Source of the DNA: Holophagales bacterium
GTDB lineage: Bacteria; Acidobacteriota; Thermoanaerobaculia; Multivoradales; Multivoraceae
DNA length: 64,000 nt
Assembly: GCA_009837885.1 (NCBI GenBank)
Contig: VXSP01000015.1
Location: forward strand, 14,065-78,064
Direction: 5' to 3'
The translations under genes were made by a program, and so were the position numbers. Position 1 is the first letter of the stretch. Every line of letters starts with the position of its first letter. The notes beneath the pieces were generated by a model that worked only from the letters and a program-made list of their open reading frames with translations, was not told the DNA's origin and searched no databases. Below, in pieces: positions 8,431 through 53,598 of the stretch.

Positions 8431-9660
8431 ATGGGCAGGGGGATCGGGCGCCTTCCGATCCCCCTGTTGTTTCTCTTGATGGCGACCGGAGCCGGCGGCA
8501 CTGAGTACGCCCTCGGCCCCGACTCCCTGCCCCAGGAAGGCGTCCCAACGGGCACGGTGGAGAAGCGCACCTGGGACGCCAGCCGCATCTACCCGGGCAC
8601 GACGCACGAGTACTGGGTCTACGTGCCGGCCCAGTACACAAACGCCGAACCCGCGCCCGTCATGGTTTTCCAGGACGGTCAGTTCTACGTGGAACCCGAG
8701 GGCCCCGTCAGGGCGCCGACCGTCTTCGACAACCTGATCCACAGGAGAGAGATGCCGGTGACCATCGGCGTCTTCATCAACCCCGGGATGAAGGAAATCC
8801 CCTGGGACCAGCGGAGCAACCAGTACACGCCGCTCGACGACACCTACGCCCGCTTCCTCCTGGAGGAGATCCTCCCGGAAGTCGGCAAGGACTACAGCCT
8901 GACGGGCGAGGCGGCGGGCCGGGCGATCGCCGGCATGAGCGACGGCGGGCTGGCCTCCTTCACCGTCGCTTGGCACCGTCCCGACGCGTTCAGCAAGGTC
9001 GTCAGCCACGTCGGCAGCTACACGCGGCTCGAGGGCGGTTCCCGGTACCCGTACCTGATTCGGAAGACCCGCGGGAACCCGAAGCCGATCCGCGTCTTCC
9101 TCCAGGACGGGGAGAACGACATCAACCTCGCGGAGGGCAACTGGGCGCTGGCCAACCTCCAGATGGACTCCGCCCTGATGTTCGCCCGCTACGACTACCG
9201 CTTCGAGATGGGCACGGGCGGCCACGATCTGAGGCACGGAGGCGCCATCTTCCCGGACACGCTGCGCTGGCTCTGGCGCGACTATCCGGGTGTCAAGGGC
9301 GCCGGGGAGCCGGCGGATCCCTCCGCGGTGGTCGGGGAGTGGGACGTTCTGACGAAAGTCCTCGGCGAGTTCCGTCGCAGCGTGCTGACGGTGTCCGGGC
9401 AGGACGGCGCGCTTGCCGCGACGCTCCACGACGAGGTGGACGGCGAGATGGAGGTCACTGCGGTCCGGTTCGAAGACGGCATCCTGAGCTACGAGTACGT
9501 AGCGTCCGGATCCCAGGTGAACTGGGGCAAGGGATCGGTGGGCAGGCTGAGCGCCTGGCTGCAGGTGCGGGGCGACACTTTCCGCGGCGCCCTGAGCCTC
9601 AATGTGCCCCCCGCGGGCGACTACTCGGTCGAGGGCCGCAGGAGAACAGCGGATCCCTAG
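8431..9660 (+). CDS. Secreted esterase family protein (PF00756 / CE1-like alpha/beta hydrolase)
   Basis: Signal peptide; the GxSxG nucleophile motif is GMSDGG. The pattern VMVFQDG...DDTYARFLLEEILPEV is typical of the putative-esterase family (enterochelin esterase/CE1). It lies 19 bp after the TonB receptor. Confidence 0.7.
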   Translation: MGRGIGRLPIPLLFLLMATGAGGTEYALGPDSLPQEGVPTGTVEKRTWDASRIYPGTTHEYWVYVPAQYTNAEPAPVMVFQDGQFYVEPEGPVRAPTVFDNLIHRREMPVTIGVFINPGMKEIPWDQRSNQYTPLDDTYARFLLEEILPEVGKDYSLTGEAAGRAIAGMSDGGLASFTVAWHRPDAFSKVVSHVGSYTRLEGGSRYPYLIRKTRGNPKPIRVFLQDGENDINLAEGNWALANLQMDSALMFARYDYRFEMGTGGHDLRHGGAIFPDTLRWLWRDYPGVKGAGEPADPSAVVGEWDVLTKVLGEFRRSVLTVSGQDGALAATLHDEVDGEMEVTAVRFEDGILSYEYVASGSQVNWGKGSVGRLSAWLQVRGDTFRGALSLNVPPAGDYSVEGRRRTADP

Positions 9661-9686
9661 CGCTGCGGCGTAGGCTCCCGGCAGGT

Positions 9687-15398: not shown

Positions 15399-17195
15399 TT
15401 AGTAGGGATTCGAAGGCGTGATCTTCCAGGCCTTTAGGGAGTGCACGCGGGTGTCGCCGCCAGCGGAAAAGACCCTAACGCCGATGCTGTCCCGGCGAGA
15501 AGGATAGATGCGCCGCGCGATCGCCTGGCGGCGATTGGCGAAGACCTCGACGACCGACTTGTCGACGAAGACTCTGAGCTTCAGTCGCTCGCCGGGCTTC
15601 AGTTCGAACGGAGCTGCCTCGACGGCCTTCGGCGTGTCGTCAGGACCCGATCTGCGCGTGTCGATTTTGAGCAGCTTCTCTTCGGCGTCGTAGAAGATGG
15701 ACGTTTCCTCTTGGCCGTCGGGCGAGACGCACACCTTGACGCCGAAGTGCGATGCCTTCGTGCTTTGCAGCTCGACCTCTAGTTCCAGGCTGTTGCCGCT
15801 GACGCCTTCTACGAGCACTTCCTCGCCGGCCGGCACGACGAACGGCCCCATCCGCACCTCGCCGTAGCGCAGCGCCTCGATCTCCTCCGGCACGTCCATG
15901 CGGAGCAGCCCGTCATCTCCGAGCGACAGCACCCGCGGCAGGCTCAGCGTGCCGGACCAGCCGTGCTTCGTTCGCGCTCCGAAGAGAGGCTCGTCGAGGA
16001 TCCAGGCCCACATGATGCGGCGGCCCCGGTCGTCGACCAGGCTTTCCGGAGCGAAGAACGAGTTGTCGACCCAGCTCATCCGGGCGTGAGACCCGGGATG
16101 GAACTGTTCGTTCCTCCATTCCCCGACGTAGTAGCGGCAGCCGAGCCGATGGCTGATGCAGAGGAGCACGTGCTTGCCGCCGAGTTCGAAGAGATCCGGG
16201 CAGGACACGTCTTCGTCCAGCGACACGCCTTCGACACCGTGAGCGAAGAGGTCGCCGGCGTACTTCCATTCGCCGTCGAGTGCAGCCGACGTCGCAACCG
16301 CCGGGCGTTTGCCGCCGAAGATCGCGTAGTAGGTGTCGCCTTCGAGCCACCCGAAGGGGTCCCATGACCGGTACCTGCCGTGGTGTTCGTCGCCCTCCCG
16401 CGTCTCCGGCGTGATCGGGTTCGAGTCGAGCTTCCTCCAGTCGTTCAGGTCCTCGTCCAGGGCAACCGCCATCGCGTTGCCCAGGCCATGCTGGTGGTAG
16501 CAGATCGTCGGCAGACCTTCCTTGTTCAGGAAGCAGTTGCCGCTGTACATGCCGTCGAGCAGGCCGGTGGGGTGGTGGCGCCAGTGGAAGAGGTCCGCGC
16601 TCGACATGTGGCCCCAGTGGTCCGACCGCTCGCCCAGCCGCGCGTCCTGGAAGATGTAGAACAGGTGGTAGCGGCCCTTCCAGTGGATCGCCCCGTTCGG
16701 GTCGAACGGCATCGCCACGCCTTCCGGAATCACGAAGTGGTAGCCGGGCCGTGCCGGGTCGCTCAGGATTCGCTCGCGGAGTTGGCGCGCGTTCTCGGCG
16801 AGGCGGTTAGCCTTTCGGGAACCGACGACGGACACGCAGCGCCAGGCGCCGTCCGATTCCCTCGTCATCCTGAACTCGAAGAAGCCGCCCCCGGTCGGCG
16901 AACGAAGGACGACCGGATCGACGGCGGCAGTGTCTCCGTCGAACACCACTTCGGCGTCGTCGAGGACGAAGCGCTTCTCCCGATCGGTCGGTCGGTCGAC
17001 CTGCTTCCGCAGATACTCCCGGAGATCGGCCTTGGTCGTGCCCGAACTGCTTCGCCACGTTTCCGAGAAGAAGTCGACTTGCCCGTCGATGTCACCGACC
17101 CTGGTCGCCTTGTCGTAAGCACGCAGAGCGGCCAGGACGTCGTCGATTGCCTTGGTCGAGGACGTAGTCGCGCGTTTACTCATCGTCAGAGCCAC
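15399..17195 (-). CDS. Glycoside hydrolase family 32 (beta-fructofuranosidase/levanase-like) with an N-terminal NTF2/SnoaL-like extension
   Basis: GH32 catalytic motifs are present: HFVIPEGVAMPFDPNGAIHWKGRYHLFY (the NDPNG-type block), RSWDPFGW (RDP-type) and VSCPDLFEL (EC-type). The ~140-aa N-terminal extension is predicted as alpha+beta. Confidence 0.8.
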   Translation of the reverse strand: MALTMSKRATTSSTKAIDDVLAALRAYDKATRVGDIDGQVDFFSETWRSSSGTTKADLREYLRKQVDRPTDREKRFVLDDAEVVFDGDTAAVDPVVLRSPTGGGFFEFRMTRESDGAWRCVSVVGSRKANRLAENARQLRERILSDPARPGYHFVIPEGVAMPFDPNGAIHWKGRYHLFYIFQDARLGERSDHWGHMSSADLFHWRHHPTGLLDGMYSGNCFLNKEGLPTICYHQHGLGNAMAVALDEDLNDWRKLDSNPITPETREGDEHHGRYRSWDPFGWLEGDTYYAIFGGKRPAVATSAALDGEWKYAGDLFAHGVEGVSLDEDVSCPDLFELGGKHVLLCISHRLGCRYYVGEWRNEQFHPGSHARMSWVDNSFFAPESLVDDRGRRIMWAWILDEPLFGARTKHGWSGTLSLPRVLSLGDDGLLRMDVPEEIEALRYGEVRMGPFVVPAGEEVLVEGVSGNSLELEVELQSTKASHFGVKVCVSPDGQEETSIFYDAEEKLLKIDTRRSGPDDTPKAVEAAPFELKPGERLKLRVFVDKSVVEVFANRRQAIARRIYPSRRDSIGVRVFSAGGDTRVHSLKAWKITPSNPY

Positions 17196-17249
17196 TAGCG
17201 AGTCGTCCTAGGTTCCCCATGCACGTTGTCGCCGTGGTAGACGTGGGTC

Positions 17250-17501
17250 GTGGACGGGATGACGACAATCCTGGTGGGAGATCGCGGCAGAGTCGTGATT
17301 CCGGCGGCGGTTCGTCGTAGAGCCGGTCTGTCGGCAGGAACGGTGCTGTGTCTGCTCGAGACGCCGGGCGGGCTGGTCTTGATGAAGCGCGACCAACTCC
17401 GGGACCATGTCCGCGCCGAACTCGCCGGACTCGATCTCGTCTCTGAGCTGCTCGCGGAACGCCGCTTTGCAGCCGACGCCGAGGACGCCACCTCAGGCTA
17501 G
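17250..17501 (+). CDS. AbrB/MazE/SpoVT-family antitoxin-like DNA-binding protein (solitary)
   Basis: 83 aa. The looped-hinge helix motif is GRVVIPAAVRRRAGLSAGTVLCLLETPGGLVLMK. No toxin gene lies downstream; its 3' end overlaps the convergent brnA-like gene by 4 bp. Confidence 0.55.
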   Translation: MDGMTTILVGDRGRVVIPAAVRRRAGLSAGTVLCLLETPGGLVLMKRDQLRDHVRAELAGLDLVSELLAERRFAADAEDATSG

Positions 17502-17743
17502 CCGCCTGCAGGCGAGCCGAGTGACTCCAGGTGCCTCGCGATGAGCATCTTGATTAGAGACTGCCGAGGCACTCCCAGCCTCGAGGCCTCGCGATCGAGG
17601 GACTCGATCATCCAGATCGGAAAATCCACGTTGACGCGTCGTTGGTCGTGGCCGGGTCGACGCGCCTTCGTCAGTTCGAGGTACTTCATGATGCTCTCGC
17701 CGGCGTCGAACTTCCGGTCGAGTTCCTTCGCCTTAGCCTTCAT
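17498..17743 (-). CDS. brnA: BrnA-family (CopG/RHH-like) antitoxin with no BrnT partner
   Basis: 81 aa: KAKELDRKFDAGESIMKYLELTKARRPG...RVNVDFPIWMIESLDREASRLGVPRQSLIKMLIARHL matches the BrnA consensus. There is no room for a brnT gene between it and the ABC exporter stop at 17778. Confidence 0.65.
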   Translation of the reverse strand: MKAKAKELDRKFDAGESIMKYLELTKARRPGHDQRRVNVDFPIWMIESLDREASRLGVPRQSLIKMLIARHLESLGSPAGG

Positions 17744-17777
17744 AGAGTGCGACCTCCTCTCTCCGGAGCACGGAAGG

Positions 17778-19730
17778 CTAACCTGCCCCGGCCTGCAGTG
17801 TGGCGTACCTCCGGTATCGCCCGTCGGGTATCGCCATCAGCTCCTCGTGAGTTCCCCGTTCCTTGATCGCTCCTTCCTCGAGGAAGTAGATCCGGTCCGC
17901 GTTGGCGATCGTCGACAGGCGGTGGGCGATGATGATGACCAGCCTGTCCTTCGCCGCTTCGTGCAGGGCGTCGACCAGGTAGGCCTCGGTTTCCGGGTCG
18001 AGCGCGGAGGTCGGTTCGTCGAGGATCAGGATGCGCGCGTCGCGCAGGAGGCCCCGGGCGATCGCGATGCGCTGCTTCTGGCCGACGGACAGCTTGCTGG
18101 TCACGGTACCGAGGTTGGTCCGGTAGCCGTCGGGCAGGGCGGTGATGAAGTCGTGCGCGCCGGCGACGTGCGCGGCACGCTCGACTTGCGCCTCGGTCGC
18201 GTCCGTGTTCCCGTAGCGGATGTTCTCGAGGATCGAGTCGGAGAACAGTTGCGTCTCCTGGAAGACGTAGGAGACCTGATCGCGGAGGCTGTCGACCGAC
18301 ACGTCCTTCAGGTCGACGCCGTCGATCGTCACCGTACCTTCGGTGGGCTGCACGAAGGCCGGCACCATGTAGGCGAGGCTCGTCTTGCCCGCGCCGGTCG
18401 GGCCGACGAATGCGACGATCTCGCCCAGGCGGGCCTCGAGGTTGATGCCGCTCAGCGCCCGGCGTCCGTCGGGATACGTCAGCCCTACGTTCCTCATCTC
18501 GACGCCGCGGCTGATCCGGGGCAGCCCGACGCCTTCGCTCGTCTTCTCCGATGGCAGGTCCATCAGGAAGAACACCCGGCGCAGTCCGGCGATGTTGTCC
18601 TGCAGAACCGGGTAGATGAAGCCCATCCCGCTGAACGTCGCGCTCAGGACGAAGAAGTAGTAGTTGAGGACGAAGTAGTCGCCGGCCGTGAACGTGCCGT
18701 CGATCACGCGTCCGGCGATGACGACGAAGAACAGGACCTGGCTCAGCAGGAAGGCCAGGCTGCCGAATTGTTGGTAGGTCAGCTTGAGCAGCGACTCGAT
18801 GCGAAAGCGCCTGAAGGACTCCTCGCTGGCCTTCCTGAATCGCTGGCCTTCCCGCTCGTTTCCACCGAGGCTCTGCACGGCGAGCACGTTGCTCATGCCC
18901 TCTTCGATGTTCGCCGTCGTCGCGGCGCCCGAGGCGCGGCTGGCCTGGCTTCTGCGCCGTGCCATCCGCGCGAATGGACCGACGAAGATGAGCATGATCG
19001 GCAGCGACAGGGCGGCCAGCAGGATGACCTCTGGAGCGTCGCCGAAGTACGTGTACATCATCATTGCGCTGATCGTGATGCCGAGCGCGTGGGAGTAGAA
19101 CTCGAGGCCCACCTCGTAGAGAACGCGGCTGACACTCGTCGTGTCGTAGAGGACGCGGTAGATGCTGTCGCCGATCCGCTGGTCGTCCAGGGTCGTCATC
19201 GGCAGGCGCTTGATCCGCCCGGCGAGTTTCGTCCTGAGCAGGTGGTTCATCGACTGCGTCAGGCGCAGGTGCACCCGGAAGTCGAGGAGTCCGAGAATGC
19301 CGCCCATCAGGCCGGAGCCCCGGTTGGCCTCGTTCTCGGTCCGGGTGGCCGTGTCGTGCCCCTGGGCCAGGGTGCCGTGCCCCTGCTGGAGGAGGACGGT
19401 GGCGCCGCCCGACGAGGCCGCGGATGCTCCGGTGGGCATCCCGGTCGCGGACCTGACGGTGCCCCGGTTCGTCGTGAACCCGAACACGGTCACCATGAAG
19501 ACGCCGAGGACGAGTACCCACGCCATGATCTCCAGCGGGCTCCTGCCGGCCAGGAGCAGCACGAACGGGCTTAGGTATGAGGGGAACCCGGCCGCGTCCA
19601 CGATGGGCATGCCGAGGATGACGTGGTCGACGACGACCTTGCCCGGCCACGGCGCGACGAGCAGCCGGAACGCCATCTCCGCCGTCAGCAAACCGAACTT
19701 CGCGGCGACCCGCGCCTTGAAGAGGCGCAT
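17778..19730 (-). CDS. Fused ABC exporter (TMD plus NBD), inverted paralog of 12146-14245; the annotated ATG start truncates a conserved N-terminal region
   Basis: 650 aa from the ATG at 19728-19730. It has Walker A, signature and Walker B motifs. A further ~45 codons upstream (19731-19865) are conserved with the paralog N-terminus (LREGEKALDRSASALDTQTDIPFREVLRIFGRALAY versus LREHEKQLDRAASVLDLGTDIGFREVLRIFARVVSTF) but contain no ATG, GTG or TTG. Confidence 0.8.
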   Translation of the reverse strand: MRLFKARVAAKFGLLTAEMAFRLLVAPWPGKVVVDHVILGMPIVDAAGFPSYLSPFVLLLAGRSPLEIMAWVLVLGVFMVTVFGFTTNRGTVRSATGMPTGASAASSGGATVLLQQGHGTLAQGHDTATRTENEANRGSGLMGGILGLLDFRVHLRLTQSMNHLLRTKLAGRIKRLPMTTLDDQRIGDSIYRVLYDTTSVSRVLYEVGLEFYSHALGITISAMMMYTYFGDAPEVILLAALSLPIMLIFVGPFARMARRRSQASRASGAATTANIEEGMSNVLAVQSLGGNEREGQRFRKASEESFRRFRIESLLKLTYQQFGSLAFLLSQVLFFVVIAGRVIDGTFTAGDYFVLNYYFFVLSATFSGMGFIYPVLQDNIAGLRRVFFLMDLPSEKTSEGVGLPRISRGVEMRNVGLTYPDGRRALSGINLEARLGEIVAFVGPTGAGKTSLAYMVPAFVQPTEGTVTIDGVDLKDVSVDSLRDQVSYVFQETQLFSDSILENIRYGNTDATEAQVERAAHVAGAHDFITALPDGYRTNLGTVTSKLSVGQKQRIAIARGLLRDARILILDEPTSALDPETEAYLVDALHEAAKDRLVIIIAHRLSTIANADRIYFLEEGAIKERGTHEELMAIPDGRYRRYATLQAGAG

Positions 19731-19992
19731 GTAGGCGAGGGCACGCCCGAAGATGCGCAGGACTTCCCGGAACGGGATGTCGGTCTGTGTGTCGAGCGCG
19801 CTCGCCGAACGATCGAGCGCCTTCTCTCCCTCTCGGAGCCTTGCCCGCCAGGACTGCGGGCGGCGCGGGAGTCGCGGGGCGGCTGCCGGCTGCGTCAGAT
19901 CGACTCCGAGAGCAGTGCGCCGAGCAACAGGAGTGCGGTTTGCTGTCTCATGGTGTGCGTCCCGTGAGTCATTAGAGTTGCACGATTCCAGG

Positions 19993-21630
19993 ATGTCTAT
20001 TGTTCCGCTGCAGTCGCCGTCGAGATTGAGCGTATCCGCGCCGTCGCTTCTGCTTGCGGGGCTACTGACCTTCGTCGTTGCCTGCGCGCCCGAGAGTCGC
20101 GCCGATCGGCTGGAGTCCGCCGGCCTGAAGGCGCGCCCGCCCGCGGTCGGCGGTCCGCGCTACGGCGGCCACTTGCGGGTGGGCCACTCTCTGGAGCCCA
20201 CGTCGCTCGACGCGATTCTGGGCCGGTCGGGCGCCGACGCCTACTTCTGGCGGCAGATCTTCGATCAACTGGTCGACGCGGACCCGCAGCTCAATCCGCG
20301 GCCGGAGACCTCGCTCGCGACGTCCTGGGAGATCGCGACGGATCCCGACTCGATCACCTTCCACCTGCGGGAGGGCGTCGTCTTCCATGACGGCACTCCC
20401 TTCAATGCCCATGCGGTCAAGGCCAACATCGAGCGGATTCTGGACCCCGCGACCGTCGCGACGCCGCGCGCATCGCTGGCGGTGATCGAGGGGGTCGAGG
20501 TGATCGACGAGTACACGGTGCGCTTCGACCTGGCCGGGCCTTGGGGCGCGGGTTTCGGCATGCTGGCCGACCGTGGCGGTGTGATGAGCTCGCCGGCCGC
20601 GATCGAGGCGCTCGGCGCCGACTACGGCTGGAGCCCATCGGGAACCGGGCCGTTCCGGGTGAAGGAAGTGATCACCGGCACCCTCGTGCATTTCGTGCGG
20701 AACGAGGACTACTGGGGCCGCGACGAGCACGGCAACCAGCTTCCGTATCTCGACGAGGTCACGGTCCGGGTGATCCGCGACGAGACCGTCCGCGCCGCGG
20801 CCCTGCGCACGGGCGAGATCGACGTCACCTACCTGCCCTACAAGGACGTTTCGACCTTCGAGCGGGACGAGCGGGTCCGGATCGAGACGATGCCGGGAGG
20901 AGGCATTGCGCTGACGCTGGTCTTCAATGTCGACAAGCCGCCGCTCGACGACGTGAACGTCCGGCTGGCGATCGCCCACGCGGTCGACCCGACCGTGATC
21001 AACAGGGCGATCTTCTTCGACCGCGCGATCGAGGCCGACGCGGGCATGTGGCCGGTGGGTTCCTGGGTCCACGAGCCGGACGGCGAACGGCCCACCTACG
21101 ACGTCGACAAGGCCCGGCAGTACCTCGCGAAGGCGGGGCGGGAGAGCGGCCTGGAGTTCACGGCGGTCACCCACCACAACCCGCTGCTCGTTTCGAGCGC
21201 CGAGGTGGTGAGGGCGATGCTGAAGAAGATCGGCATCCACATGGACATCGACGTGCTGTCCAGCGGCCCGGCGACCGAGAGGTTCAACCACGGCCAGGAA
21301 TACCCGATGTTCATCACCTCCTGGAGCCGCTATCCCGAGCCGGACTGGATGGCGTCGCTGGCCTACAAGAGCGACGGGTACTACAACCCGGGCAACGTGC
21401 TGCGGCCGGACGTCGACGAGCTGGTGGAGCTGGGCGCCTCGCTCTACGACAACGAGGCCCGCAAGCAGGTCTACATCGAGCTCAACCGGACCGTGCTAGG
21501 CGAGGCCTGGTTCACGCCGCTGCTCTACGGCGTGACGTTCGCGGCGGCACCCGGGAGGGTGCGCAACCTCGACCAGTTGATGGGCTGGGACGGCAAGATG
21601 AACTTCGCGACGATCTGGCTGGAGGAGTAG
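19993..21630 (+). CDS. ABC transporter substrate-binding lipoprotein, family 5 (peptide/nickel/oligosaccharide, DppA/OppA-like)
   Basis: The start is at M81 of the tracked ORF (MSIVPLQSPSRLSVSAPSLLLAGLLTFVVAC, lipoprotein signal). It shows typical SBP_bac_5 length and composition and is followed by two permease genes. Confidence 0.8.
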   Translation: MSIVPLQSPSRLSVSAPSLLLAGLLTFVVACAPESRADRLESAGLKARPPAVGGPRYGGHLRVGHSLEPTSLDAILGRSGADAYFWRQIFDQLVDADPQLNPRPETSLATSWEIATDPDSITFHLREGVVFHDGTPFNAHAVKANIERILDPATVATPRASLAVIEGVEVIDEYTVRFDLAGPWGAGFGMLADRGGVMSSPAAIEALGADYGWSPSGTGPFRVKEVITGTLVHFVRNEDYWGRDEHGNQLPYLDEVTVRVIRDETVRAAALRTGEIDVTYLPYKDVSTFERDERVRIETMPGGGIALTLVFNVDKPPLDDVNVRLAIAHAVDPTVINRAIFFDRAIEADAGMWPVGSWVHEPDGERPTYDVDKARQYLAKAGRESGLEFTAVTHHNPLLVSSAEVVRAMLKKIGIHMDIDVLSSGPATERFNHGQEYPMFITSWSRYPEPDWMASLAYKSDGYYNPGNVLRPDVDELVELGASLYDNEARKQVYIELNRTVLGEAWFTPLLYGVTFAAAPGRVRNLDQLMGWDGKMNFATIWLEE

Positions 21631-21640
21631 CACCCGCCAT

Positions 21641-22594
21641 ATGCGCAGCTTCCTCGCGCGCCGCCTGTTGCAGGCGGTGCCCGTTCTCCTCCTGGTCACG
21701 TTCCTGGTGTTCGCGCTGATGCTCGCGATTCCGGGCGACCCGGCGCGGGCGTTCATCGGGCCCGGCGAGGCGCTCGACGAAGAGCAGTTGCAGCTCATCC
21801 GCGAACGTCACCACCTGGACGAACCGGTGATCGTCCAGTACCTGATCTGGCTCGGCAACGTCCTCCAGGGCGACTTCGGCCGTTCGACCCAGAACATGCG
21901 CCCGGTGGCGGAGGAACTCGGCGGCCGGGCTCTGGTGACCCTGCAGTTCGGCCTCGCGGCCTGGATTCTCGCGGTGCTGGTCGGCGTGCCGGCCGGCATT
22001 GCATCGGCGGTCTATCGCGGCAAACCGATCGACTACGCGGCGACGGTGGTCTCGATCGGCGGGGTCGCCATCCCGAACTTCTGGCTCGGCATCATGGCGA
22101 TCCTGCTCTTCGGCGTGGGGCTCGGCTGGCTGCCGAGCCAGGGCTACGTGAGCCTCTTCGACGACCCGCTGCAGAGCCTGCGCCACATGGTCCTGCCGGC
22201 GTTCGCCCTCGGTGTCACGAGCTGCGCGCTGATCATGCGGCAGAGCCGCTCGGCCATGCTCGAGGTGCTTGCCCAGGACTACCTGCGTACCTCTCGTGCC
22301 CGGGGGTCGAGGGAGCGCACCGTGATCTGGTCGCATGCCCTGCGCAACGCGCTGCTGCCGGTCATCACGATTCTCGGCCTGCAGACGGGCCGCATCTTCG
22401 CCGGGGCGATCGTCATCGAGACGCTCTTCGGCATCCCCGGCACCGGCCAGTACATCGTGCAGGCGATCTTCGCCCGCGACTTCCTGGTCGTGCAGGCGGC
22501 GGTGCTGCTGATGGCGGTCGCCGTGCTCGCCGCGAATCTCGTCACCGACCTCGCCTGCGCCTGGCTCGACCCGAGGATCAAGTTCGGTGACTAG
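21641..22594 (+). CDS. ABC transporter permease (DppB/OppB-like)
   Basis: 317 aa, 6 TM. The N-terminus MRSFLARRLLQAVPVLLLVTFLVFALMLAIPGDP is typical, and the EAA-like loop is present (DYLRTSRARGSRERTVIW). Confidence 0.85.
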   Translation: MRSFLARRLLQAVPVLLLVTFLVFALMLAIPGDPARAFIGPGEALDEEQLQLIRERHHLDEPVIVQYLIWLGNVLQGDFGRSTQNMRPVAEELGGRALVTLQFGLAAWILAVLVGVPAGIASAVYRGKPIDYAATVVSIGGVAIPNFWLGIMAILLFGVGLGWLPSQGYVSLFDDPLQSLRHMVLPAFALGVTSCALIMRQSRSAMLEVLAQDYLRTSRARGSRERTVIWSHALRNALLPVITILGLQTGRIFAGAIVIETLFGIPGTGQYIVQAIFARDFLVVQAAVLLMAVAVLAANLVTDLACAWLDPRIKFGD

Positions 22595-23567
22595 GAATGT
22601 GCGCCGCAAGACCGGGTACGCCGCCGCCCCGGCCAACCGGGTGCTGTCGATTGGGTGCGCCGGCGTCCCCGCCGGCATCCGGCGCGAAGCGCCGGCCTCT
22701 GGAGGCGCTGCTCCGCCCAGCCACCCGACCCTCGAGCTGCTGCGCAAGCTCGCCTCTGTGCCCCAGGCGCTGGCCGGCCTCGTCGTGCTGGCGCTGATCG
22801 CCGCGGCGGCGGTGCTGGCGCCCTGGATCGTCCCCGTCGACGCCGAGGAGATGGACTTCGACAACCTGCTCTCGGGCCCGAGCGCCGCGCACTGGCTCGG
22901 CTCGGACCAGATGGGCCGCGACACGCTGGCCCGGCTGATCGTCGGCGCGCGGATCGCGCTGTCCGTCAGCCTTGGCGCCGTCGGCCTCGGCGTGTTGCTG
23001 GGAGTGCCTCTCGGCCTGCTGTCGGTCTACTTCCGCGGCCGCGTCGACGACGTGCTGATGCGGCTCATGGACGCGCTGGTCACGTTCCCCAGCCTGCTGA
23101 TCGCGGTCGGTCTGGCCGCCGCCCTCGGCGGCTCGCTCCGCACCGTGATCATCGCCATCGGCATCGCGAACGTGCCGTGGATGGCCAGGATCGTTCGCAG
23201 CCAGGGGCTCTCCATCCGCGAGCGGGACTTCGTCAAGGCCGCGGAGTCGCTCGGCCTCAGCCACCCGCGCATCATCCTGCGCCACATCCTGCCCAACTGC
23301 ATCGCCCCGGTCATCGTCCAGAGCACCCTCAGCATGGGCTACGCGGTGCTGACCGAAGCCGCCCTCGGCTTCGTCGGCGTCGGCATCCAGCCGCCCACGC
23401 CGACCTGGGGCAACATGCTCCAGCAGGCCTTCCCGATGCTCGAGCAGCAGCCGCTGCTTTCGATCGTCCCGGGCGTGGCGATCTTCCTGCTGGTGCTGTC
23501 GTTCAACTGCGTGGGGGACGCGCTGCGGGATCTGCTGGATCCGCGGCTGCGGGGGGTGATTCACTAA
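22587..23567 (+). CDS. ABC transporter permease (DppC/OppC-like); its 5' region contains a REP copy, so the true start may be the GTG near 22758
   Basis: 326 aa. A GTG start overlaps the dppB-like stop. The conserved core begins at ~LELLRKLASVPQALAGLVVLALIAAAAVLAPWIVPVD, and the EAA loop is FVKAAESLGLSHPRIILRHILPN. Residues 20-40 (GCAGVPAGIRREAPASGG) are encoded by a reverse-oriented REP. Confidence 0.8.
   Translation: MTRNVRRKTGYAAAPANRVLSIGCAGVPAGIRREAPASGGAAPPSHPTLELLRKLASVPQALAGLVVLALIAAAAVLAPWIVPVDAEEMDFDNLLSGPSAAHWLGSDQMGRDTLARLIVGARIALSVSLGAVGLGVLLGVPLGLLSVYFRGRVDDVLMRLMDALVTFPSLLIAVGLAAALGGSLRTVIIAIGIANVPWMARIVRSQGLSIRERDFVKAAESLGLSHPRIILRHILPNCIAPVIVQSTLSMGYAVLTEAALGFVGVGIQPPTPTWGNMLQQAFPMLEQQPLLSIVPGVAIFLLVLSFNCVGDALRDLLDPRLRGVIH
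22653..22706 (-). repeat. REP-like double-hairpin repeat (full-length copy, reverse orientation) inside the tracked dppC-like ORF
   Basis: The reverse complement reads GGCCGGCGCTTCGCGCCGGATGCCGGCGGGGACGCCGGCGCACCCAAT, with both stem-loops (CCGGCGC-TTC-GCGCCGG and TGCCGGCG-GGGA-CGCCGGCA). Confidence 0.8.
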
Positions 23568-23569
23568 CC

Positions 23570-23917
23570 ATGACCGAGACCGTGACGATTCCGAAGGCCG
23601 AGTATCAACGATTGTCTGCCGTCGAGGAAGATCACGCCGACATCCGGGCCGTGCTCGCCGTGCAGGCGAGAGTGGACGCCGGGACCGAGGAGCTCGTGCC
23701 CGCCGCGATGGTCAGCCGTCTGATCGATGGCGAGTCGCCGTTACGGGTCTGGCGCGAGTACCGTGGCCTCTCGCAGGCCGCTCTGGCCCGCACAGCTGAT
23801 ACGAGTCGTGTCCAGATCGTTGACATCGAAGCCGGTCGCCGAACTGGCTCCGTGCGCACGCTTCGCCGGCTCGCTGACGCCCTCGGTGTCGGCTTGGACG
23901 ACGTCGTTCCAGGCTAG
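23570..23917 (+). CDS. HTH-XRE family antitoxin-like protein (C-terminal helix-turn-helix), copy 1
   Basis: 115 aa. ESPLRVWREYRGLSQAALARTADTSRVQIVDIEAGRR is an XRE-type HTH. The start is 2 bp after the dppC-like stop. It is ~70% identical to 24934-25245. No toxin partner is recognisable. Confidence 0.65.
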   Translation: MTETVTIPKAEYQRLSAVEEDHADIRAVLAVQARVDAGTEELVPAAMVSRLIDGESPLRVWREYRGLSQAALARTADTSRVQIVDIEAGRRTGSVRTLRRLADALGVGLDDVVPG

Positions 23918-23981
23918 CTTCGGCGGCTCGCCGGTTCGTAGCGGTTTGTCGCCGTGTATTCTGAGCGAAGGAGGTAGTGGA

Positions 23982-24251
23982 GTGAGGGCCGAGAAGGTTG
24001 AACTTGGAATGCAGTACTTGGAGGAGGCTGTGATGGAGGTGCTTCTGGAGGCGGCGCAAGGCGACGAGTGCCTGGGTCCGGCTGAGGTCACTCTTCGCGC
24101 CGGCCTCTATCGGGGCACCTTTCTGAAGAACGCTATCGCTGCCGGCACGCTCAACAAGCTCCTGGAGGAAGGCCGTGTCGTCCGCTGCCTACAGGCAAAC
24201 GGAAGGGGGGGCTGGAAGGCAGCAGCGGTTGACCCGGACAGTCTCTCGTGA
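23982..24251 (+). CDS. Small hypothetical protein (about 89 aa)
   Basis: A GTG start sits 8 nt after a strong RBS (GAAGGAGG). Codon usage is coding-like. Sequence: ...MQYLEEAVMEVLLEAAQGDECLGPAEVTLRAGLYRGTFLKNAIAAGTLNKLLEEGRVVRCLQ... with no recognised domain. Confidence 0.35.
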   Translation: MRAEKVELGMQYLEEAVMEVLLEAAQGDECLGPAEVTLRAGLYRGTFLKNAIAAGTLNKLLEEGRVVRCLQANGRGGWKAAAVDPDSLS

Positions 24252-24365
24252 GTGCTTGATTCGAACCAAGCGACCACGCGAGCAGATGACACGGATAGGC
24301 GGCCGGAGAGCTCGACGGCGTGAACGCCTTGGCTGAGTGCTCCGGCGCACGCCTCGCCGCCTTCT

Positions 24366-24602
24366 TCAACCCCCGTACACAAAATCCGTTCCTAGCTCAC
24401 CGGCTATCCCTGCGGCGTGGAGTTCGACGAAGAAACGGACGGCGGAGCAGTGTCGGAGGGTTCGGGCGGCGGCTTCCGCGACTTCGCGGTCGCACGCGTA
24501 GTGCAGCTCGCCTTCGGCGGAAGTTTGGGCCTCCTCGAGGACGTGTTCGAGAGCGTGGAGCAGTTGGGGCGTGATGGAGGGACTGGCGATTGGTTTGCTC
24601 AT
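24366..24602 (-). CDS. Small hypothetical protein (78 aa), divergent from the RHH gene
   Basis: The minus-strand ORF shows GC3-rich codon usage. No recognisable motif. Weak call. Confidence 0.25.
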   Translation of the reverse strand: MSKPIASPSITPQLLHALEHVLEEAQTSAEGELHYACDREVAEAAARTLRHCSAVRFFVELHAAGIAGELGTDFVYGG

Positions 24603-24658
24603 TGGTGATCCTTCTGTTCGTGGTGGAGGCGGGAGGTGACGCTCATTAGGAGGTCGAA

Positions 24659-24868
24659 GTGGCGATTGTGATCAACGCGAAGCTGGACGAAGCCGTCTGG
24701 AACGAGCTTCGCGGCTTGGCGAGAGCGACGGGACGGGACGTTTCGGTAGTGCTCTCCGAAGCGGTTGAGGAGTACCTGGCGCGGCGCCGCGCGCGGCCCG
24801 ATGTGCGTCAGCATCTGGAGGGCTCTTTATCCGAGAACGAGGGATTGGGGAAGCTCCTCGCACGGTAG
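24659..24868 (+). CDS. Ribbon-helix-helix (CopG/ParD-like) small DNA-binding protein
   Basis: 69 aa. A GTG start sits 5 nt after the RBS AGGAGG. The N-terminal beta-strand IVINAKLDEAVWNEL followed by helices (GRDVSVVLSEAVEEYLARR) is RHH-like. Confidence 0.5.
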   Translation: MAIVINAKLDEAVWNELRGLARATGRDVSVVLSEAVEEYLARRRARPDVRQHLEGSLSENEGLGKLLAR

Positions 24869-24933
24869 CCCTGTCTGCGGCGCCCGTCGCGGGCCGCGAG
24901 TAGCCTGGACGGGGCAGCGACCCGCGTCTTCTG

Positions 24934-25245
24934 GTGAAGGCGCTCCGCAACGTGGCGGAGTTCGAGGAGGATCAGGCCGCGCTCGCCGTTCAGGCGCGAA
25001 TCGACGGCGGAATCGAGGAGTTCGTGCCCGGGACGGTCGTCAGCCGGCTAGTCGACGGCGAGTCTCCGCTGCGCGTCTGGCGCGAGTACCGTGGTCTCTC
25101 GCAGGCCGCCCTGGCTCGCGCCGCGAGCACGAGCCGTGCCCAGATCGTTGACATTGAGGCGGGGCGTCGAACCGTCAGCGCCCACACGCTCCGCCGGCTT
25201 GCTGGTGCTCTGGGTATAGAGCCGGACGACATCGTTTCGGGCTGA
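24934..25245 (+). CDS. HTH-XRE family antitoxin-like protein, copy 2 (paralog of 23570-23917)
   Basis: 103 aa. ESPLRVWREYRGLSQAALARAASTSRAQIVDIEAGRR is nearly identical in its HTH core to copy 1. Confidence 0.65.
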   Translation: MKALRNVAEFEEDQAALAVQARIDGGIEEFVPGTVVSRLVDGESPLRVWREYRGLSQAALARAASTSRAQIVDIEAGRRTVSAHTLRRLAGALGIEPDDIVSG

Positions 25246-25298
25246 CCGGGGCGAAGCGAACGACCGATGAAGCCGTTTCTCGAAACGAGAACGGAGAA

Positions 25299-26084
25299 AT
25301 GAGAATCGCGACCTGGTGCATTGGCGGGGTTCTCGGTCGTCTGGAGTTCCTCTGCCATTGGCTCGAACGGCGGCTGCCCGATGTCGTGGCTCTGCAGAAG
25401 ATCCGCGTTTCCGAGGAGAAGTTCCCGGCCGAAGCGCTGGCGGGTGTGGGCTACCGTTCCGAACCGCTTCGCAGGGAGTCGTGGTATGGCGTTGCGTTGC
25501 TGGCTCGGAACGATGGGCCGAAGCCCAAGATTCTGGACAGGGGGCTTCCGCCTGGCGACAGTCCAGACGACGATGGGTTCCTGACCGCTCGAATCGGTGA
25601 TCTCGTCGTTTCCTCCGTGTACGCGCCTTTCGGCGATCCCAAGAGGCGTGGAAGAGCAGGTGCTCTGGCGTACAAGGTCGCTTGGCTGGGTCGCCTGATC
25701 GCACACCTCAAAGAGCAACGGACTGGCCGGGATCGTTTGGTGCTGTGCGGCGACTTCAACGTGCTGCCCGATGTTCCGGCCAAGCGCGGCGTTCTGAACT
25801 GCACTTCGGACGAGAAGAAGCAGCTACAGGAGATCCTCGATACCGGGTTCGTTGACCTCTACAAGCCCGTCGGCCCACTTTCGGGCGCGGGTCTCAACTA
25901 TGGCTTCAACCCCAAGCTGGCACCGACGGCGAGGCTGCAGCTGGTGCTTGGCAGCAAGAGCATGGCGGATTCCGTGGCTTCCGCGTGGGTCGATCTGGAG
26001 TACCGGAGGCCGGTCGATGGGCTGCCGGGCCGGAAGTGGCCGGCCAGCGCTCCCTTGATCGTGGACTTGGCTGATCCGGCCTAG
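25299..26084 (+). CDS. Exonuclease III / EEP-family homolog with a degenerate active site (probable pseudo-nuclease)
   Basis: 261 aa, alignable to E. coli ExoIII: MRIATW..., WYGVALL and LCGDFNVLPD (the GDxN block) are conserved. The catalytic positions are substituted: N7 to C (TWCIGG), E34 to K (LQKIRV), D229 to Q (RLQLVL) and D258/H259 to A/S (WPASAPL). Confidence 0.75.
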   Translation: MRIATWCIGGVLGRLEFLCHWLERRLPDVVALQKIRVSEEKFPAEALAGVGYRSEPLRRESWYGVALLARNDGPKPKILDRGLPPGDSPDDDGFLTARIGDLVVSSVYAPFGDPKRRGRAGALAYKVAWLGRLIAHLKEQRTGRDRLVLCGDFNVLPDVPAKRGVLNCTSDEKKQLQEILDTGFVDLYKPVGPLSGAGLNYGFNPKLAPTARLQLVLGSKSMADSVASAWVDLEYRRPVDGLPGRKWPASAPLIVDLADPA

Positions 26085-26129
26085 CGGTGGTCAGCCGGCG
26101 TAGACCAGGGCGGGGGATGGAGGAACTCA

Positions 26130-26357
26130 CTACCTTTCATGAGCTTCCTCACGCGTCCAGGAACGCTCGGAACCGTAGCTTTCCTCGGCCCAGAGCGCGT
26201 CCAGCCGTGCGACCACGGCTTCGGAGTCGTCCGTGCGGGTGAGATCGTGGAGGTAGTCCCGCACGAGCTGGTTCAGGCTGGTTCCCCGCAGGGCGGCGAT
26301 CCGTCGGGCCTCGGCGACTATCCGGTCGTCGAGGGACAGTGTGACGTCCATGAGCAC
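26130..26357 (-). CDS. VapB/FitA-like ribbon-helix-helix antitoxin (solitary)
   Basis: 75 aa: MDVTLSLDDRIVAEARRIAALRGTSLNQLVRDYL is the classic RHH antitoxin N-terminus. Downstream on its strand is the convergent EEP-like gene, so it has no toxin. Confidence 0.5.
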   Translation of the reverse strand: MLMDVTLSLDDRIVAEARRIAALRGTSLNQLVRDYLHDLTRTDDSEAVVARLDALWAEESYGSERSWTREEAHER

Positions 26358-26396
26358 AGGCTAGGTATGGACGGGGTCCGCGTCAACTGAAAGAGC

Positions 26397-26430
26397 CAGA
26401 GCCGGCGGGGACGCCGGCGCACCCAGTCTG
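26397..26430 (+). repeat. REP-like repeat, partial copy (right stem-loop only)
   Basis: AGCCGGCGGGGACGCCGGCGCACCCAGTCTG, lying between the sulfatase stop and the RHH gene start. Confidence 0.75.
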
Positions 26431-26458
26431 GACAGTCGAGGTTCTCCGGCGGAGATTC

Positions 26459-27832
26459 CTAGCTGTCACGCCCCGAAGGCAGCACCCGGCCCTCTGGGTA
26501 GTCGGCGCCGGTGACGCTCTTGTCGACGGACCGGTTCCAGGCATCCAGCTCCGCCCGCATGCGGGCGGCGAGTTCGGGCTGCTGCTCGATCAGGTTGTCC
26601 TCTTCCCCGGGATCGTCGATCACGTTGTAGAGCTCGAAGGGATCGGTCGGGTCGGAGAAGTAGTTCCGCACCAGTTTGACCTGGTTGTCCAGCCAGGCGA
26701 GACCGCCGCTGGCGCGGAAGCCGATGGGCTGCTCCCGGCGGGCGGGCTCGGACTCGAACACGCGGACAATGGAGATGCCGTCGTGGACCTCGTTGATCGA
26801 CGACGGGTCGAGCCCGGCGACCTCGATCAGGGTCGGGAAGATGTCCATCGTGCTGGCGGGGAAACTCGTGATCCTCGGGGCGATGCCGCCTGGCCATTCG
26901 ATGATCGTCGGCACGCGCAGGCCGCCCTCGTAGAAGTCCTTCTTGAAGCCGCGCAGGTGGCCGGTGGTGTCGGGGCGGACGCCGGGATGCTCGGGGCCGT
27001 AGGAGATGTCGGGCAGGCCGCCGTTGTCGCTGGTGAACCAGACCAGGGTGTTGTCGGCGATTCCGAGTTCACGCAGGCCCTCGCGGAGAGCGCCGATGGA
27101 GCGGTCCATCGCGACGATCTCGGCGTGGTGCGTCCTGGAGGCATCGTCCAGCGCCGTGAAGGGCTGCTCGTCTTCCGGCAGGGCGGCGAACGGCCGGTGC
27201 GGTGAGGCGTACCAGATCACCGCGAACACCGGCTTCCCGCTCTCCCGCTGCTCCGAGATGTAGCGCAGCGCTTCGGCGACCAGGATCTCCGACGAATCGC
27301 CCTCGAACTGCTTCGGCACTCCGTTCTGACTGAAGACGGGGTCCAGGTTGAACTGGTTCGTGTGGCTCAGCCAGTAGCCGAAGCCGAGTTCGCCGGGATT
27401 GTGGGGGTCGTCCGCGGGCATCGGATTGTCGCCGCTTGGATGGACCTGGTTCAGGTGCCACTTGCCGAAGTGGGCCGTGGCGTATCCAGCCTGCCGGAAT
27501 GCCGTGGCGAGCGACTTCTCCTGTTTGTTGATCGAGTCGCCGACGCGGAAGGCCCCTGTGCGATCGTTAGTGCGCCCGGTCAACACCGTCGCCCGGGTCG
27601 GGGTGCAGCTCGGCGCGCCGGCGTAGAACCGGTCCATGCGGAGGCCAGCGCCGGCCATCGCGTCGAGGTGGGGCGTCTGGAGCAGTGGATGGCCGTAGTA
27701 GCCGGTCTGCGCCCAGCCCATGTCGTCGGCCATGAGGAGGACGACGTTGGGCGGATCGTTCTCGGCTGCGGGCTGGCAGGCGAGAACCGCGAAGAGCGGC
27801 AGGGGGAGGAATCGGGGAAGAGACTTCAGCAT
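26459..27832 (-). CDS. Sulfatase (formylglycine-dependent arylsulfatase family), secreted
   Basis: 457 aa. Signal peptide. The sulfatase signature is SCTPTRATVLTGR (C-x-P-x-R), with NVVLLMADDMGW as the metal-binding start and GKWHL. Confidence 0.9.
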   Translation of the reverse strand: MLKSLPRFLPLPLFAVLACQPAAENDPPNVVLLMADDMGWAQTGYYGHPLLQTPHLDAMAGAGLRMDRFYAGAPSCTPTRATVLTGRTNDRTGAFRVGDSINKQEKSLATAFRQAGYATAHFGKWHLNQVHPSGDNPMPADDPHNPGELGFGYWLSHTNQFNLDPVFSQNGVPKQFEGDSSEILVAEALRYISEQRESGKPVFAVIWYASPHRPFAALPEDEQPFTALDDASRTHHAEIVAMDRSIGALREGLRELGIADNTLVWFTSDNGGLPDISYGPEHPGVRPDTTGHLRGFKKDFYEGGLRVPTIIEWPGGIAPRITSFPASTMDIFPTLIEVAGLDPSSINEVHDGISIVRVFESEPARREQPIGFRASGGLAWLDNQVKLVRNYFSDPTDPFELYNVIDDPGEEDNLIEQQPELAARMRAELDAWNRSVDKSVTGADYPEGRVLPSGRDS

Positions 27833-27850: not shown

Positions 27851-27901
27851 CCGGAATTCCGCTGTCCGGATGCCGGCGGGGGCGCCGGCGCACCCAGTGT
27901 G
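27851..27901 (+). repeat. REP-like repeat (variant left arm)
   Basis: CCGGAATTCCGCTGTCCGGATGCCGGCGGGGGCGCCGGCGCACCCAGTGTG, in the divergent spacer between the sulfatase and the DUF2911-like gene. Confidence 0.8.
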
Positions 27902-28608: not shown

Positions 28609-28986
28609 TCAGAAGGCGATCCGCCGGACACCGTCGACGGCGTCGAAGTGGGTGTCGTTGCTCAGCACCGGCAGGGCGTGCTGGCGGCAGAGAGCGGCGA
28701 TCCATGCGTCGTTCGATGGGATGGGCGTGCCGGTCCGTTTCAGCTTCAGTCTGATCTCGGCGTAGACCTCGGCCGTTCCTGAGGTTACGGTGGCTACTTC
28801 GGCGAGGGGCAGGTGACGGCGGAGCCAGCCTTCGTAGCGCCGTCGGTGCCGCGACTGACGGATGCCGAAGTAGTACTCGCCGAGGACGATACTCGGTACG
28901 ACCAGCCGCCGCGCCGAACGGAGAGGTGCTTCCACCGGCGCGAACCCCTCCGCCCACGCCGACAGCGCGTTCGTGTCGAGAATCAC
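28609..28986 (-). CDS. vapC: VapC PIN-domain toxin
   Basis: A GTG start overlaps the vapB stop by 4 bp (GTGA). ILDTNALSAW...SNDTHF carries the PIN acidic residues. Confidence 0.75.
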   Translation of the reverse strand: MILDTNALSAWAEGFAPVEAPLRSARRLVVPSIVLGEYYFGIRQSRHRRRYEGWLRRHLPLAEVATVTSGTAEVYAEIRLKLKRTGTPIPSNDAWIAALCRQHALPVLSNDTHFDAVDGVRRIAF

Positions 28987-29276
28987 GGAGCGTCGCCGGG
29001 GTCGAGCTTCTCGAACTCCTCCTCGATCGCCTGGAGGACGTTCCGGTGCTCGTCGCGGAGGTCGGCAAGTTCTCCGAATCCCTCCATCCAGGGAGGCTCC
29101 GGCGGTACGGGTGCGATCCCGTGGGGGTCGGCATTGGCTCGCGTACCGGCAGCATGTCGGCCGAGGTGCAGTTCGACGGCGTCCGTGAAGAACCGCTTCA
29201 GCGTCATTCCGCGGCCAGCGGCAAGGGCCTTCGCGCGGCGGAACGTGGTATCGGGCAGTTCGATGGTAGTCTTCAT
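28983..29276 (-). CDS. vapB: VapB antitoxin
   Basis: 97 aa: MKTTIELPDTTFRRAKALAAGRGMTLKRFFTDAVELHL. It sits immediately upstream of vapC and overlaps it. Confidence 0.75.
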   Translation of the reverse strand: MKTTIELPDTTFRRAKALAAGRGMTLKRFFTDAVELHLGRHAAGTRANADPHGIAPVPPEPPWMEGFGELADLRDEHRNVLQAIEEEFEKLDPGDAP

Positions 29277-33667: not shown

Positions 33668-33719
33668 GAAGCCGGCGCTTCGCGCCGGATGCCGGCGGGG
33701 ACGCCGGCGCACCCAGTGT
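33668..33719 (+). repeat. REP-like double-hairpin repeat (full copy) abutting the DUF1501 stop codon
   Basis: GAAGCCGGCGCTTCGCGCCGGATGCCGGCGGGGACGCCGGCGCACCCAGTGTC. Its 3' end provides the complement of the TGA stop of the DUF1501 gene. Confidence 0.85.
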
Positions 33720-38370: not shown

Positions 38371-38440
38371 GGTGCCGCTGCGGGATCTCGAGGCTCCACA
38401 CTGGGTGCGCCGGCGTCCCCGCCGGCTGCCGCCGGAGGCG
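38371..38440 (-). repeat. REP-like repeat (reverse orientation, with a partial second copy)
   Basis: CACACTGGGTGCGCCGGCGTCCCCGCCGGCTGCCGCCGG is the reverse complement of the core, and it is preceded by the degenerate half-copy CTGGGTGCCGCTG. It lies between the sulfatase stop (38488) and the PSD1 start (38319). Confidence 0.75.
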
Positions 38441-53575: not shown

Positions 53576-53598
53576 TCGTTCCGGACGTCAATCTCCTC

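Follow-up and report, generated by a model that had tools for sequence, protein, structure and literature searches.

Antitoxin-type genes and complete pairs in the window

The sequence analysed here is a stretch of 64,000 nucleotides (hereafter the window) from a metagenome-assembled Holophagales (Acidobacteriota) genome, and our subject is a set of six antitoxin-type genes in it that stand without a toxin gene: an AbrB/MazE-type gene, brnA, two XRE genes (XRE1 and XRE2) and two RHH genes (RHH1 and RHH2). The NCBI proteins for the window genes are MXX74807-MXX74820, encoded on a 151-kb contig, and the G+C content is about 67% across the whole window. Contigs with the same sequences carry the sample labels ENGE20 and ROBB21, which we take to be sponge-microbiome data sets; the organism is described here as sponge-associated. 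All six genes listed in the original prediction were found in their places, and every family assignment is supported by Pfam or NCBIfam matches (Table 1). The AbrB and brnA genes are indeed wedged between a GH32 gene and an ABC exporter gene, as had been described, and the other four lie in a strain-variable island between oppC and a sulfatase gene. Related contigs and loci are referred to as L001, L002 and so on.

Table 1. Features of the window, with positions, strands and family matches
Feature	Position	Strand	Match or remark
ORF of 57-58 aa	15214-15390	-	just downstream of GH32; called in every related contig, without family match
GH32 gene	15399-17195	-
AbrB/MazE-type gene (VapB type)	17250 (GTG) or 17259 (ATG) to 17501	+	PF04014, 32.3 bits (cut-off 24.7); TIGR01439, 33.5 bits
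brnA	17498-17743	-	NF047399, 114.8 bits (cut-off 60), model positions 2-70 of 70
3' stub of brnT, last 10 codons and stop	17733-17765	-	overlaps brnA start; from alignment and translation
Deletion junction, ABC exporter stop to brnT stub	17766-17777	-	same sequence (gccttccgtg) in L003 and L004
ABC exporter gene	17778-19730	-
XRE1	23570-23917	+	HTH_31, 45.5 bits; HTH_3
Small gene (80-aa ORF), 72-89 aa depending on the start chosen	24009-24251	+	no significant family match
78-aa ORF, divergent from RHH1	24366-24602	-	lineage-restricted
RHH1	24659-24868	+	RHH_1, 20.8 bits against 20.5, borderline
XRE2	24934-25245	+	HTH_31; HTH_3
ExoIII-like (EEP fold) gene, 261 aa	25299-26084	+	PF03372, 41.4 bits
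RHH2 (DUF6364)	26130-26351/26357	-	PF19891, 32 bits against 27.3
REP-like palindromic element, right island boundary	26401-26424	+	first base is where homology resumes
Other REP-like copies	1548-1571, 22653-22676 (-), 27872-27895, 33691-33714, 35288-35311, 38403-38426 (-), 44802-44825, 59552-59575
vapBC pair 1	28609-29276	-	97-aa antitoxin and 125-aa PIN
phd-vapC pair 2	41187-41830	-	80-aa Phd and 133-aa PIN
vapBC pair 3	53294-54018	+	92-aa RHH and PIN

All six reading frames of 17150-17800 and 23500-26460 were scanned with Pfam at E<=10. No toxin family (PIN, RelE/ParE, BrnT, MazF, HicA, Doc or any other) was matched in any frame of these two regions, and the only domains found were of antitoxin type or belonged to the EEP nuclease fold. 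Partner-type toxins recovered from relatives (BrnT, three ParE and three PIN proteins) were then used as tblastn queries against the whole 64 kb. The only meaningful match was a stub of BrnT residues 77-86, with 100% identity, at 17736-17765. The view that the six genes lack cognate toxins held up in these searches, in which no overlooked intact toxin open reading frame (ORF) turned up, and a toxin remnant of the kind looked for in the flanks exists in one case, that of brnT. Gene calls of related contigs, which cover about 7.5k-64k of the window, contain no further toxin-antitoxin (TA) genes; for 1-7.5k the ORF list shows large ORFs only.

The three intact pairs that had been reported were also confirmed by gene calls and family matches, the third with a caveat on its start codon. 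The vapC gene of this pair has no ATG, GTG or TTG in the region (53572-53600) before the first catalytic Asp (PDVN). The sole start before that Asp is a CTG overlapping the vapB stop codon (CTGA, where ATGA or GTGA would be usual), and the protein reaches 135.5 bits with TIGR00028 only when the nine codons upstream of the first GTG are included. Because the DNA of the start region is identical in four assemblies, the missing canonical start is not a sequencing error. The gene could encode an attenuated toxin or use a non-canonical start. Cross-talk between the orphans and the resident pairs was rejected: similarity to the antitoxins of the three pairs could not be detected in any of the orphans, and in tblastn the three resident PIN toxins did not resemble the PIN proteins encoded beside homologues of AbrB or DUF6364.

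Loss of brnT and parE from the two loci

BrnT/BrnA is a type II system with a toxin-first operon, first described in Brucella abortus. In L001, L002, L005 and L006 a brnT gene (PF04365, 87.8 bits, 86 aa) overlaps the start of brnA, and L016 also has brnT directly upstream. The gene is absent from the window, L003 and L004. The six places shown stand for 16 contigs, of which 13 are brnT-positive and three brnT-less. Where L001 has about 384 bp, made up of the spacer and the greater part of brnT, the window has about 9 nt instead. Read in the brnT frame, the window gives the C-terminus of the ABC exporter (LQAGAG*), the junction (PSVL) and the last ten codons of brnT (RREEVALYEG*), and brnA is now found at a distance of 35 nt behind the stop codon of the ABC exporter gene. 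In L001 and L006 an AT-rich palindrome, TATAG-N3-CTATA, is situated just upstream of brnT. The deletion removed it, and no second BrnA operator of this sequence was found in the whole window. These data show that brnA lost brnT together with its promoter region by one deletion of about 384 bp. In related metagenomes, alleles with and without brnT occur side by side and code for the same BrnA protein, which is the precondition for an anti-addiction role. In L004 the ABC exporter gene upstream of brnA (8798-9718) is itself reduced to 306 aa by an internal deletion, which is further evidence of a deletion-prone neighbourhood.

The 4-bp convergent overlap between the AbrB and brnA genes is real (17498-17501) and consists of two opposite-strand TAG stop codons that share a CTAG palindrome. 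It had been considered odd that two antitoxin families overlap in this way. This impression did not survive the comparison with relatives: the site reads TTAG in sister strains, and in the more distant L016 (84% amino acid identity in AbrB) brnT-brnA is still convergent to the AbrB gene, with a 5-nt gap instead of the overlap. The NCBI start of the AbrB gene, ATG 17259, gives 80 aa and is the likely one. The protein is full length when compared with ten homologues (55-87% identity), its C-terminal DLVSELLAERR tail included. For three homologues (P0057, P0061 and P0034), the next gene downstream encodes a PIN protein of 121-122 aa and overlaps by 4 nt. Since these are three independent contexts out of three, the subfamily can be assigned to VapB. 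No PIN gene stands beside the AbrB gene at this locus in the window, L001, L002, L004, L005 or L016. A PIN domain is likewise absent from every frame of 17150-17800, and the partner-type PIN protein from L017 had no tblastn match in the window. We infer that the AbrB gene is a full-length vapB whose downstream PIN toxin gene was lost before the window lineage split from L016, and the overlap would then simply be the tail-to-tail packing of two TA loci after the loss of vapC.

A deletion in L003 and L006 (window equivalent 17173-17451) has taken away the larger part of the AbrB gene along with the first codons of GH32. The alignment, judged by eye, suggests a CGCGA microhomology at the breakpoints. 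The GH32 gene of L006 (L006 10253-12061) is called with a new N-terminus that starts 7 nt after brnA, and it may be cotranscribed with brnTA. The GH32 gene of L003 (L003 10253-11856) is split into 158 aa and 383 aa.

At the second locus, the window is homologous to L001-L003 as far as the oppC stop codon (23565) and again from 26401 onwards. In the interval from oppC to the sulfatase gene, the window and L007-L010 carry XRE1, the 80-aa ORF, the 78-aa ORF on the minus strand, RHH1, XRE2, the ExoIII-like gene and, again on the minus strand, RHH2. The content differs in other strains. L003 has an ExoIII-like gene, a 72-aa gene and an RHH gene that is 70% identical to RHH1 and overlaps the 72-aa gene by 4 nt, while L001 and L002 have an XRE fragment, an internally deleted ExoIII-like gene and the 72-aa gene, with or without an RHH gene. 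An RNase T gene, a 143-aa XRE gene and an ExoIII-like gene occupy the place in L006, and an integrase gene and a MazE-PIN pair do so in L005.

The right boundary of the island is marked by a REP-like palindromic element. This element, with the core CCGGATGCCGGCGGGGACGCCGGCGCACCCAGTGTG and a 7-bp hairpin GCCGGCG/CGCCGGC, is present in nine copies in the window, where none would be expected. Another REP-like copy lies in a variable stretch at the 5' end of oppC, and a similar GCCGGCG-containing sequence is found between oppC and the parE region in L036 and L039. Scans for tRNA genes and Rfam families, as signs of an integration site or an RNA antitoxin, gave no match in the window. The G+C content at third codon positions (GC3) of the TA-related and island genes is 0.70-0.86, compared to 0.85-0.94 for neighbouring core genes, which is consistent with a horizontal origin.

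The ATG of XRE1 lies 2 nt past the oppC stop codon. The protein aligns end to end with plasmid antitoxins (50-55% identity, N-terminal extension included), and the genes of these plasmid homologues are directly downstream of a gene for an 83-88-aa RelE/ParE toxin in three of the four records inspected. When one genome per species was scanned with the single XRE1 protein as query, a ParE-like ORF was found immediately upstream at 40 of the 72 species loci (56%), and at 7 of 18 among the closest relatives. The orthologous locus retains different amounts of parE. In L039, oppC is followed by a REP element, an intact parE (PF05016), the XRE gene, a remnant of the ExoIII-like gene, RHH2 on the minus strand and the sulfatase gene. 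In L037 and L038 parE is reduced to its 3' end, and a degenerate spacer of 263 nt takes its place in L036. At the XRE1 locus of the window neither the six-frame Pfam scan nor tblastn gave a ParE match. XRE1 has thus lost its upstream parE, and the loci from L039 to the window form a decay series.

XRE2 is 69% identical to XRE1 at the amino acid level and is a 5'-truncated paralogue of it. Its homology to the 143-aa version of L006 begins at window 24913-24918, which means that about 30-37 N-terminal codons are missing. The L006 protein (734-1165, minus strand) looks chimeric: its first ~45 residues weakly match TIGR02684 'addiction module antidote' (E = 2e-4), and the rest is XRE1-like. Of this L006-type N-terminal piece XRE2 keeps only the tail (DPRLLVKALRNVAE).

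As the source is a metagenome-assembled genome and the region is strain-variable, the missing toxins might be an artefact of assembly or binning, produced by collapsed or chimeric contigs. However, the identical brnT-less junction is present in independent samples, namely the window, L003 (JGI) and L004 (a 3-Mb contig). The same island architecture recurs in the independent assemblies L007-L010 (ENA, NCBI and Logan), so the island of the window is not an assembly artefact, and the flanking genes are intact across the junctions. We regard the chance of such an artefact as negligible.

Strain variation was also seen next to the ABC exporter gene. In L001-L006 a sulfatase gene of 523-534 aa (L001 5948-7459) is located between the genes for the ABC exporter and a peptide-binding protein. 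This gene is absent from the window (at about 19906-19908), L007, L008 and L016.

RHH genes, small ORFs and the ExoIII-like gene

For RHH1 only the generic RHH_1 model passes; against the RelB-like model NF048017 it scores 25.2 bits, below the cut-off of 50. A 69-aa RHH gene of L001 and L003 shares 67-70% identity with it and has a 4-nt overlap with a 72-aa gene upstream, and with tblastn the 72-aa and RHH genes were also found adjacent to each other in L048 and L066. From this RHH1 appears to correspond to the second gene of a two-gene cassette of the sister strains. The 72-aa gene itself had, by eye, been taken for a HicB N-terminal domain. This was rejected, as the protein has no match in Pfam, NCBIfam, PADLOC or PDB.

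RHH2 probably starts at 26351 and encodes 73 aa; databases hold the 73-aa form. Downstream of its DUF6364 homologues there is a PIN gene in L027 (a plasmid record) and L034, and in L035 a truncated ORF occupies this position. P0135, the homologue nearest to RHH2 (82% identity), stands alone and is convergent with vsr, and at the same locus in L036, L039 and L053 RHH2 is solitary as well. In the window, RHH2 and the ExoIII-like gene converge across 46 bp that contain no ORF, and hence no downstream PIN gene. The family context suggests that RHH2 descends from a PIN-linked module. The nearest relatives of RHH2 are two identical DUF6364 copies that lie about 2 kb apart in L028/L029 (ERZ21862620 ctg189372l). 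One copy directly faces a vsr gene in convergent orientation, and between the other copy and a second vsr there is a 75-aa ORF; the surroundings include a DNA methylase gene and lack a PIN gene.

The two small ORFs of the island were considered as toxins. The AlphaFold2 (AF2) model of the 80-aa ORF (pLDDT 65) consists of three helices, and its best fold matches, which are weak, are winged-helix domains. The ORF was rejected as a toxin on these grounds and probably encodes a winged-helix DNA-binding protein. The 78-aa ORF has no match in Pfam, NCBIfam, PADLOC or PDB. It is an ORFan with only two clusters among 5.8 billion proteins and three matches among 1.84 billion representatives, and its structure model (pLDDT 53) is uninformative. 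It was likewise rejected.

The third candidate, the ExoIII-like gene, encodes a protein that matches TIGR00633 at the borderline (99.5 bits against 99.05). It aligns with solved Xth enzymes over its length. In the alignment to the Xth structure 2jc4, N7 was found to be replaced by C, E34 by K and RID by RLQ, with Q at the place of the catalytic Asp, and only the GDFN motif is kept. The SDH motif, which lies beyond the 2jc4 alignment, is presumably lost too, as judged by eye against the E. coli ExoIII sequence. Going by these residues, the protein is probably not an active nuclease and may be a pseudo-nuclease. The gene is conserved (dN/dS, the ratio of non-synonymous to synonymous substitution rates, 0.26). 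Throughout this clade its neighbours are an XRE gene, absent upstream in L003, together with either DUF6364 or the cassette of the 72-aa and RHH genes. The linkage of XRE and ExoIII-like genes is confined to this one syntenic locus and does not occur among distant XRE1 relatives. A nuclease toxin guarded by XRE2 or RHH2 was therefore rejected, as the catalytic residues are mostly replaced and the linkage is seen at one locus.

Unannotated ORFs between antitoxin-type genes leave room for the explanation that some of the orphans pair with an unrecognised neighbouring toxin. The 78-aa ORFan could then belong to RHH1, and the ExoIII-like gene to XRE2, RHH2 or the 72-aa plus RHH cassette. This would fit the recurrent neighbours of the ExoIII-like gene in this clade and the convergence of DUF6364 relatives elsewhere with another nuclease gene, vsr. 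Moreover, 49% of apparent orphan antitoxins adjoin a coding sequence without a known toxin domain (Horesh et al., PMC7192599). However, the ExoIII-like protein lacks N7, E34 and the catalytic Asp, and in L003 the gene is intact in the absence of an upstream XRE gene, although it is followed there by the 72-aa plus RHH cassette. The partner of the XRE1 family is demonstrably an upstream ParE, and the 78-aa ORF is a lineage-restricted ORFan that is transcribed divergently from RHH1. Adding to this the winged-helix-like 80-aa ORF, the single locus of the XRE-Exo linkage and the fact that none of the candidate proteins matches PADLOC, we consider unrecognised partners very unlikely.

Selection, origin and relation to known systems

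Pairwise dN/dS values were estimated by the Nei-Gojobori method, and all of them come from few sites and small counts. They amounted to 0-0.16 for BrnA, 0.12-0.31 for AbrB, 0.11-0.28 for the XRE1 orthologues, 0.22-0.29 for RHH1 and 0.18-0.51 for RHH2, compared to 0.15-0.22 for GH32 and 0.10-0.23 for the ABC exporter as flanking core genes. With values of about 0-0.5, well below 1, five of the six genes are retained rather than decaying. XRE2 on the other hand has a dN/dS of 1.0 when compared to the L006 allele (4 synonymous and 11 non-synonymous differences) and appears to be drifting. BrnA differs from L001, L003 and L004 by 15 synonymous and no non-synonymous changes, a comparison that is biased because the contigs were retrieved by exact identity to the window BrnA protein; that with L016 (dN/dS 0.09-0.16) is the only one free of this retrieval bias. 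XRE1 and its toxin-less orthologue in L036 gave a dN/dS of 0.11 at dS = 0.82. All AbrB comparisons are between toxin-less loci, and the gene is solitary and conserved at a dS of about 0.35.

These values bear on the possibility that degraded TA loci have left the orphans behind as non-functional, neutral debris that is turning into pseudogenes. XRE2, 5'-truncated and with a dN/dS of about 1, would fit this description, and further decay is visible in sister strains, where the AbrB gene is deleted (L003 and L006), a PIN gene is truncated (L035) and the XRE and Exo-like genes are fragmented (L001, L002 and L045). GC3 of all these genes is also below that of the core genes. However, five of the six genes are intact and full length, and their dN/dS values are mostly like those of the flanking core genes. 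In addition, the toxin-less XRE1 orthologues still give a dN/dS of 0.11 at a dS of about 0.8, and the solitary AbrB gene is conserved across lineages. Neutral decay is thus an unlikely explanation for the set.

We consider it probable that the six genes remain from type II modules which lost their toxin genes by deletion, and that they are mostly antitoxins kept under selection. Three alternatives had been offered for the orphans: anti-addiction modules, domesticated transcription factors and remnants of toxin loss. Toxin loss stands as the origin, directly for brnA and XRE1 and at the family level for AbrB and RHH2, whereas the idea of mere remnants does not agree with the dN/dS values below 1 in five of the six genes.

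Several observations weigh against this reading. The brnA allele of the window is closest to that of the brnT-positive L006 and almost the same as it, while the deletion junction is common to L003 and L004. This points to recombination that has mixed the brnA histories, so the substitutions in brnA are not datable relative to the deletion. The low dN/dS values are simple pairwise counts over few sites, and those between brnA strains carry the retrieval bias mentioned above. For AbrB and RHH2 the argument for the loss of a PIN gene comes from family context, as both lack a toxin stub and a toxin-bearing orthologous locus. The ORFs at 24009-24251 and 24366-24602 could formally still be novel partners. 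Read-through expression and present-day function, finally, are predictions.

The process that we propose begins with the deletion of toxin genes in two recombination-prone stretches in which the antitoxins survive. The deletion of brnT placed brnA behind the ABC exporter gene, and the clean loss of parE left XRE1 directly behind oppC. Transcription of both genes would then probably depend on read-through from the transporter operons in front of them. This prediction follows from the loss of their own upstream regions and from the finding that no terminator-like site intervenes between the ABC exporter gene and brnA or between oppC and XRE1, in promoter and terminator scans that were otherwise uninformative. 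For the proteins two roles are most likely: they would provide immunity against cognate toxins still in circulation in the same population, where brnTA-positive strains coexist, or they would be DNA-binding regulators that work on their own. That the retained antitoxins specifically provide population-level immunity against circulating, recombining toxin-bearing alleles (brnTA and parE-XRE) is a rather unlikely version of this. If it is true, antitoxin-only strains, with their genes wired to transporter operons, would be protected from addiction by incoming alleles. More speculatively, the XRE gene, the catalytically dead ExoIII-like gene and DUF6364 or the 72-aa/RHH cassette might form an undescribed module in which antitoxin-like genes serve a pseudo-nuclease.

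An excess of orphan antitoxins over complete pairs had been claimed. It is real within the window (six orphans compared to three pairs), but ordinary against published counts. Klebsiella pneumoniae strains have a median of nine orphan antitoxins, often in the context of complete pairs (PMC7192599), and in marine metagenome-assembled genomes orphan components outnumber complete systems in several phyla, Acidobacteriota included (PMC12654330). By our own count 44% of the XRE1 relatives at the 72 species loci are without a toxin, which shows that such orphan ratios are common. The 6:3 ratio in one 64-kb window is therefore unremarkable in itself, and as orphan antitoxins have already been reported to be abundant, the present case is ordinary but well resolved. 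The explanations proposed for them are degradation, anti-addiction and the gain of new functions (PMC7192599).

What the window offers is a base-level natural history of type II TA decay in an uncultured sponge symbiont. Toxin removal was sometimes clean and sometimes left stubs, and two antitoxins ended directly behind transporter operons. This speaks for orphan antitoxins being genes that are kept, as opposed to annotation noise. It also provides concrete candidate pairs for anti-addiction or cross-neutralisation, namely window BrnA with the BrnT of sister strains and XRE1 with the ParE of L039.

When compared to known systems, the sister strains of the window show canonical brnT-brnA, with overlapping genes and an upstream palindrome, and the brnA of the window passes the BrnA model. 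The window however lacks the toxin, the spacer and the palindrome, ten codons of brnT are left, and brnA stands behind an ABC exporter gene. The AbrB protein resembles VapBC systems with an AbrB/MazE-type VapB in that antitoxins encoded ahead of PIN genes share 65-75% identity with it over the full length. It differs from them in that no PIN gene follows and that its stop codon abuts or overlaps that of a convergent brnA, relatives included. XRE1 matches end to end the antitoxins of toxin-first ParE/RelE-XRE modules of alphaproteobacterial plasmids (annotated as 'plasmid stabilization protein' and HTH regulator), and a sister species has parE-XRE at the locus, whereas the window is without any parE and has a second, truncated XRE copy. 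With the orphan antitoxins surveyed previously (PMC7192599 and PMC12654330) the present genes share their unpaired state in the context of complete pairs of other strains, and the same candidate roles. In contrast to those surveys, junctions and graded decay are resolved here to the base at two loci and purifying selection was measured. What the window reveals is not a new kind of system but a clear example of a known process.

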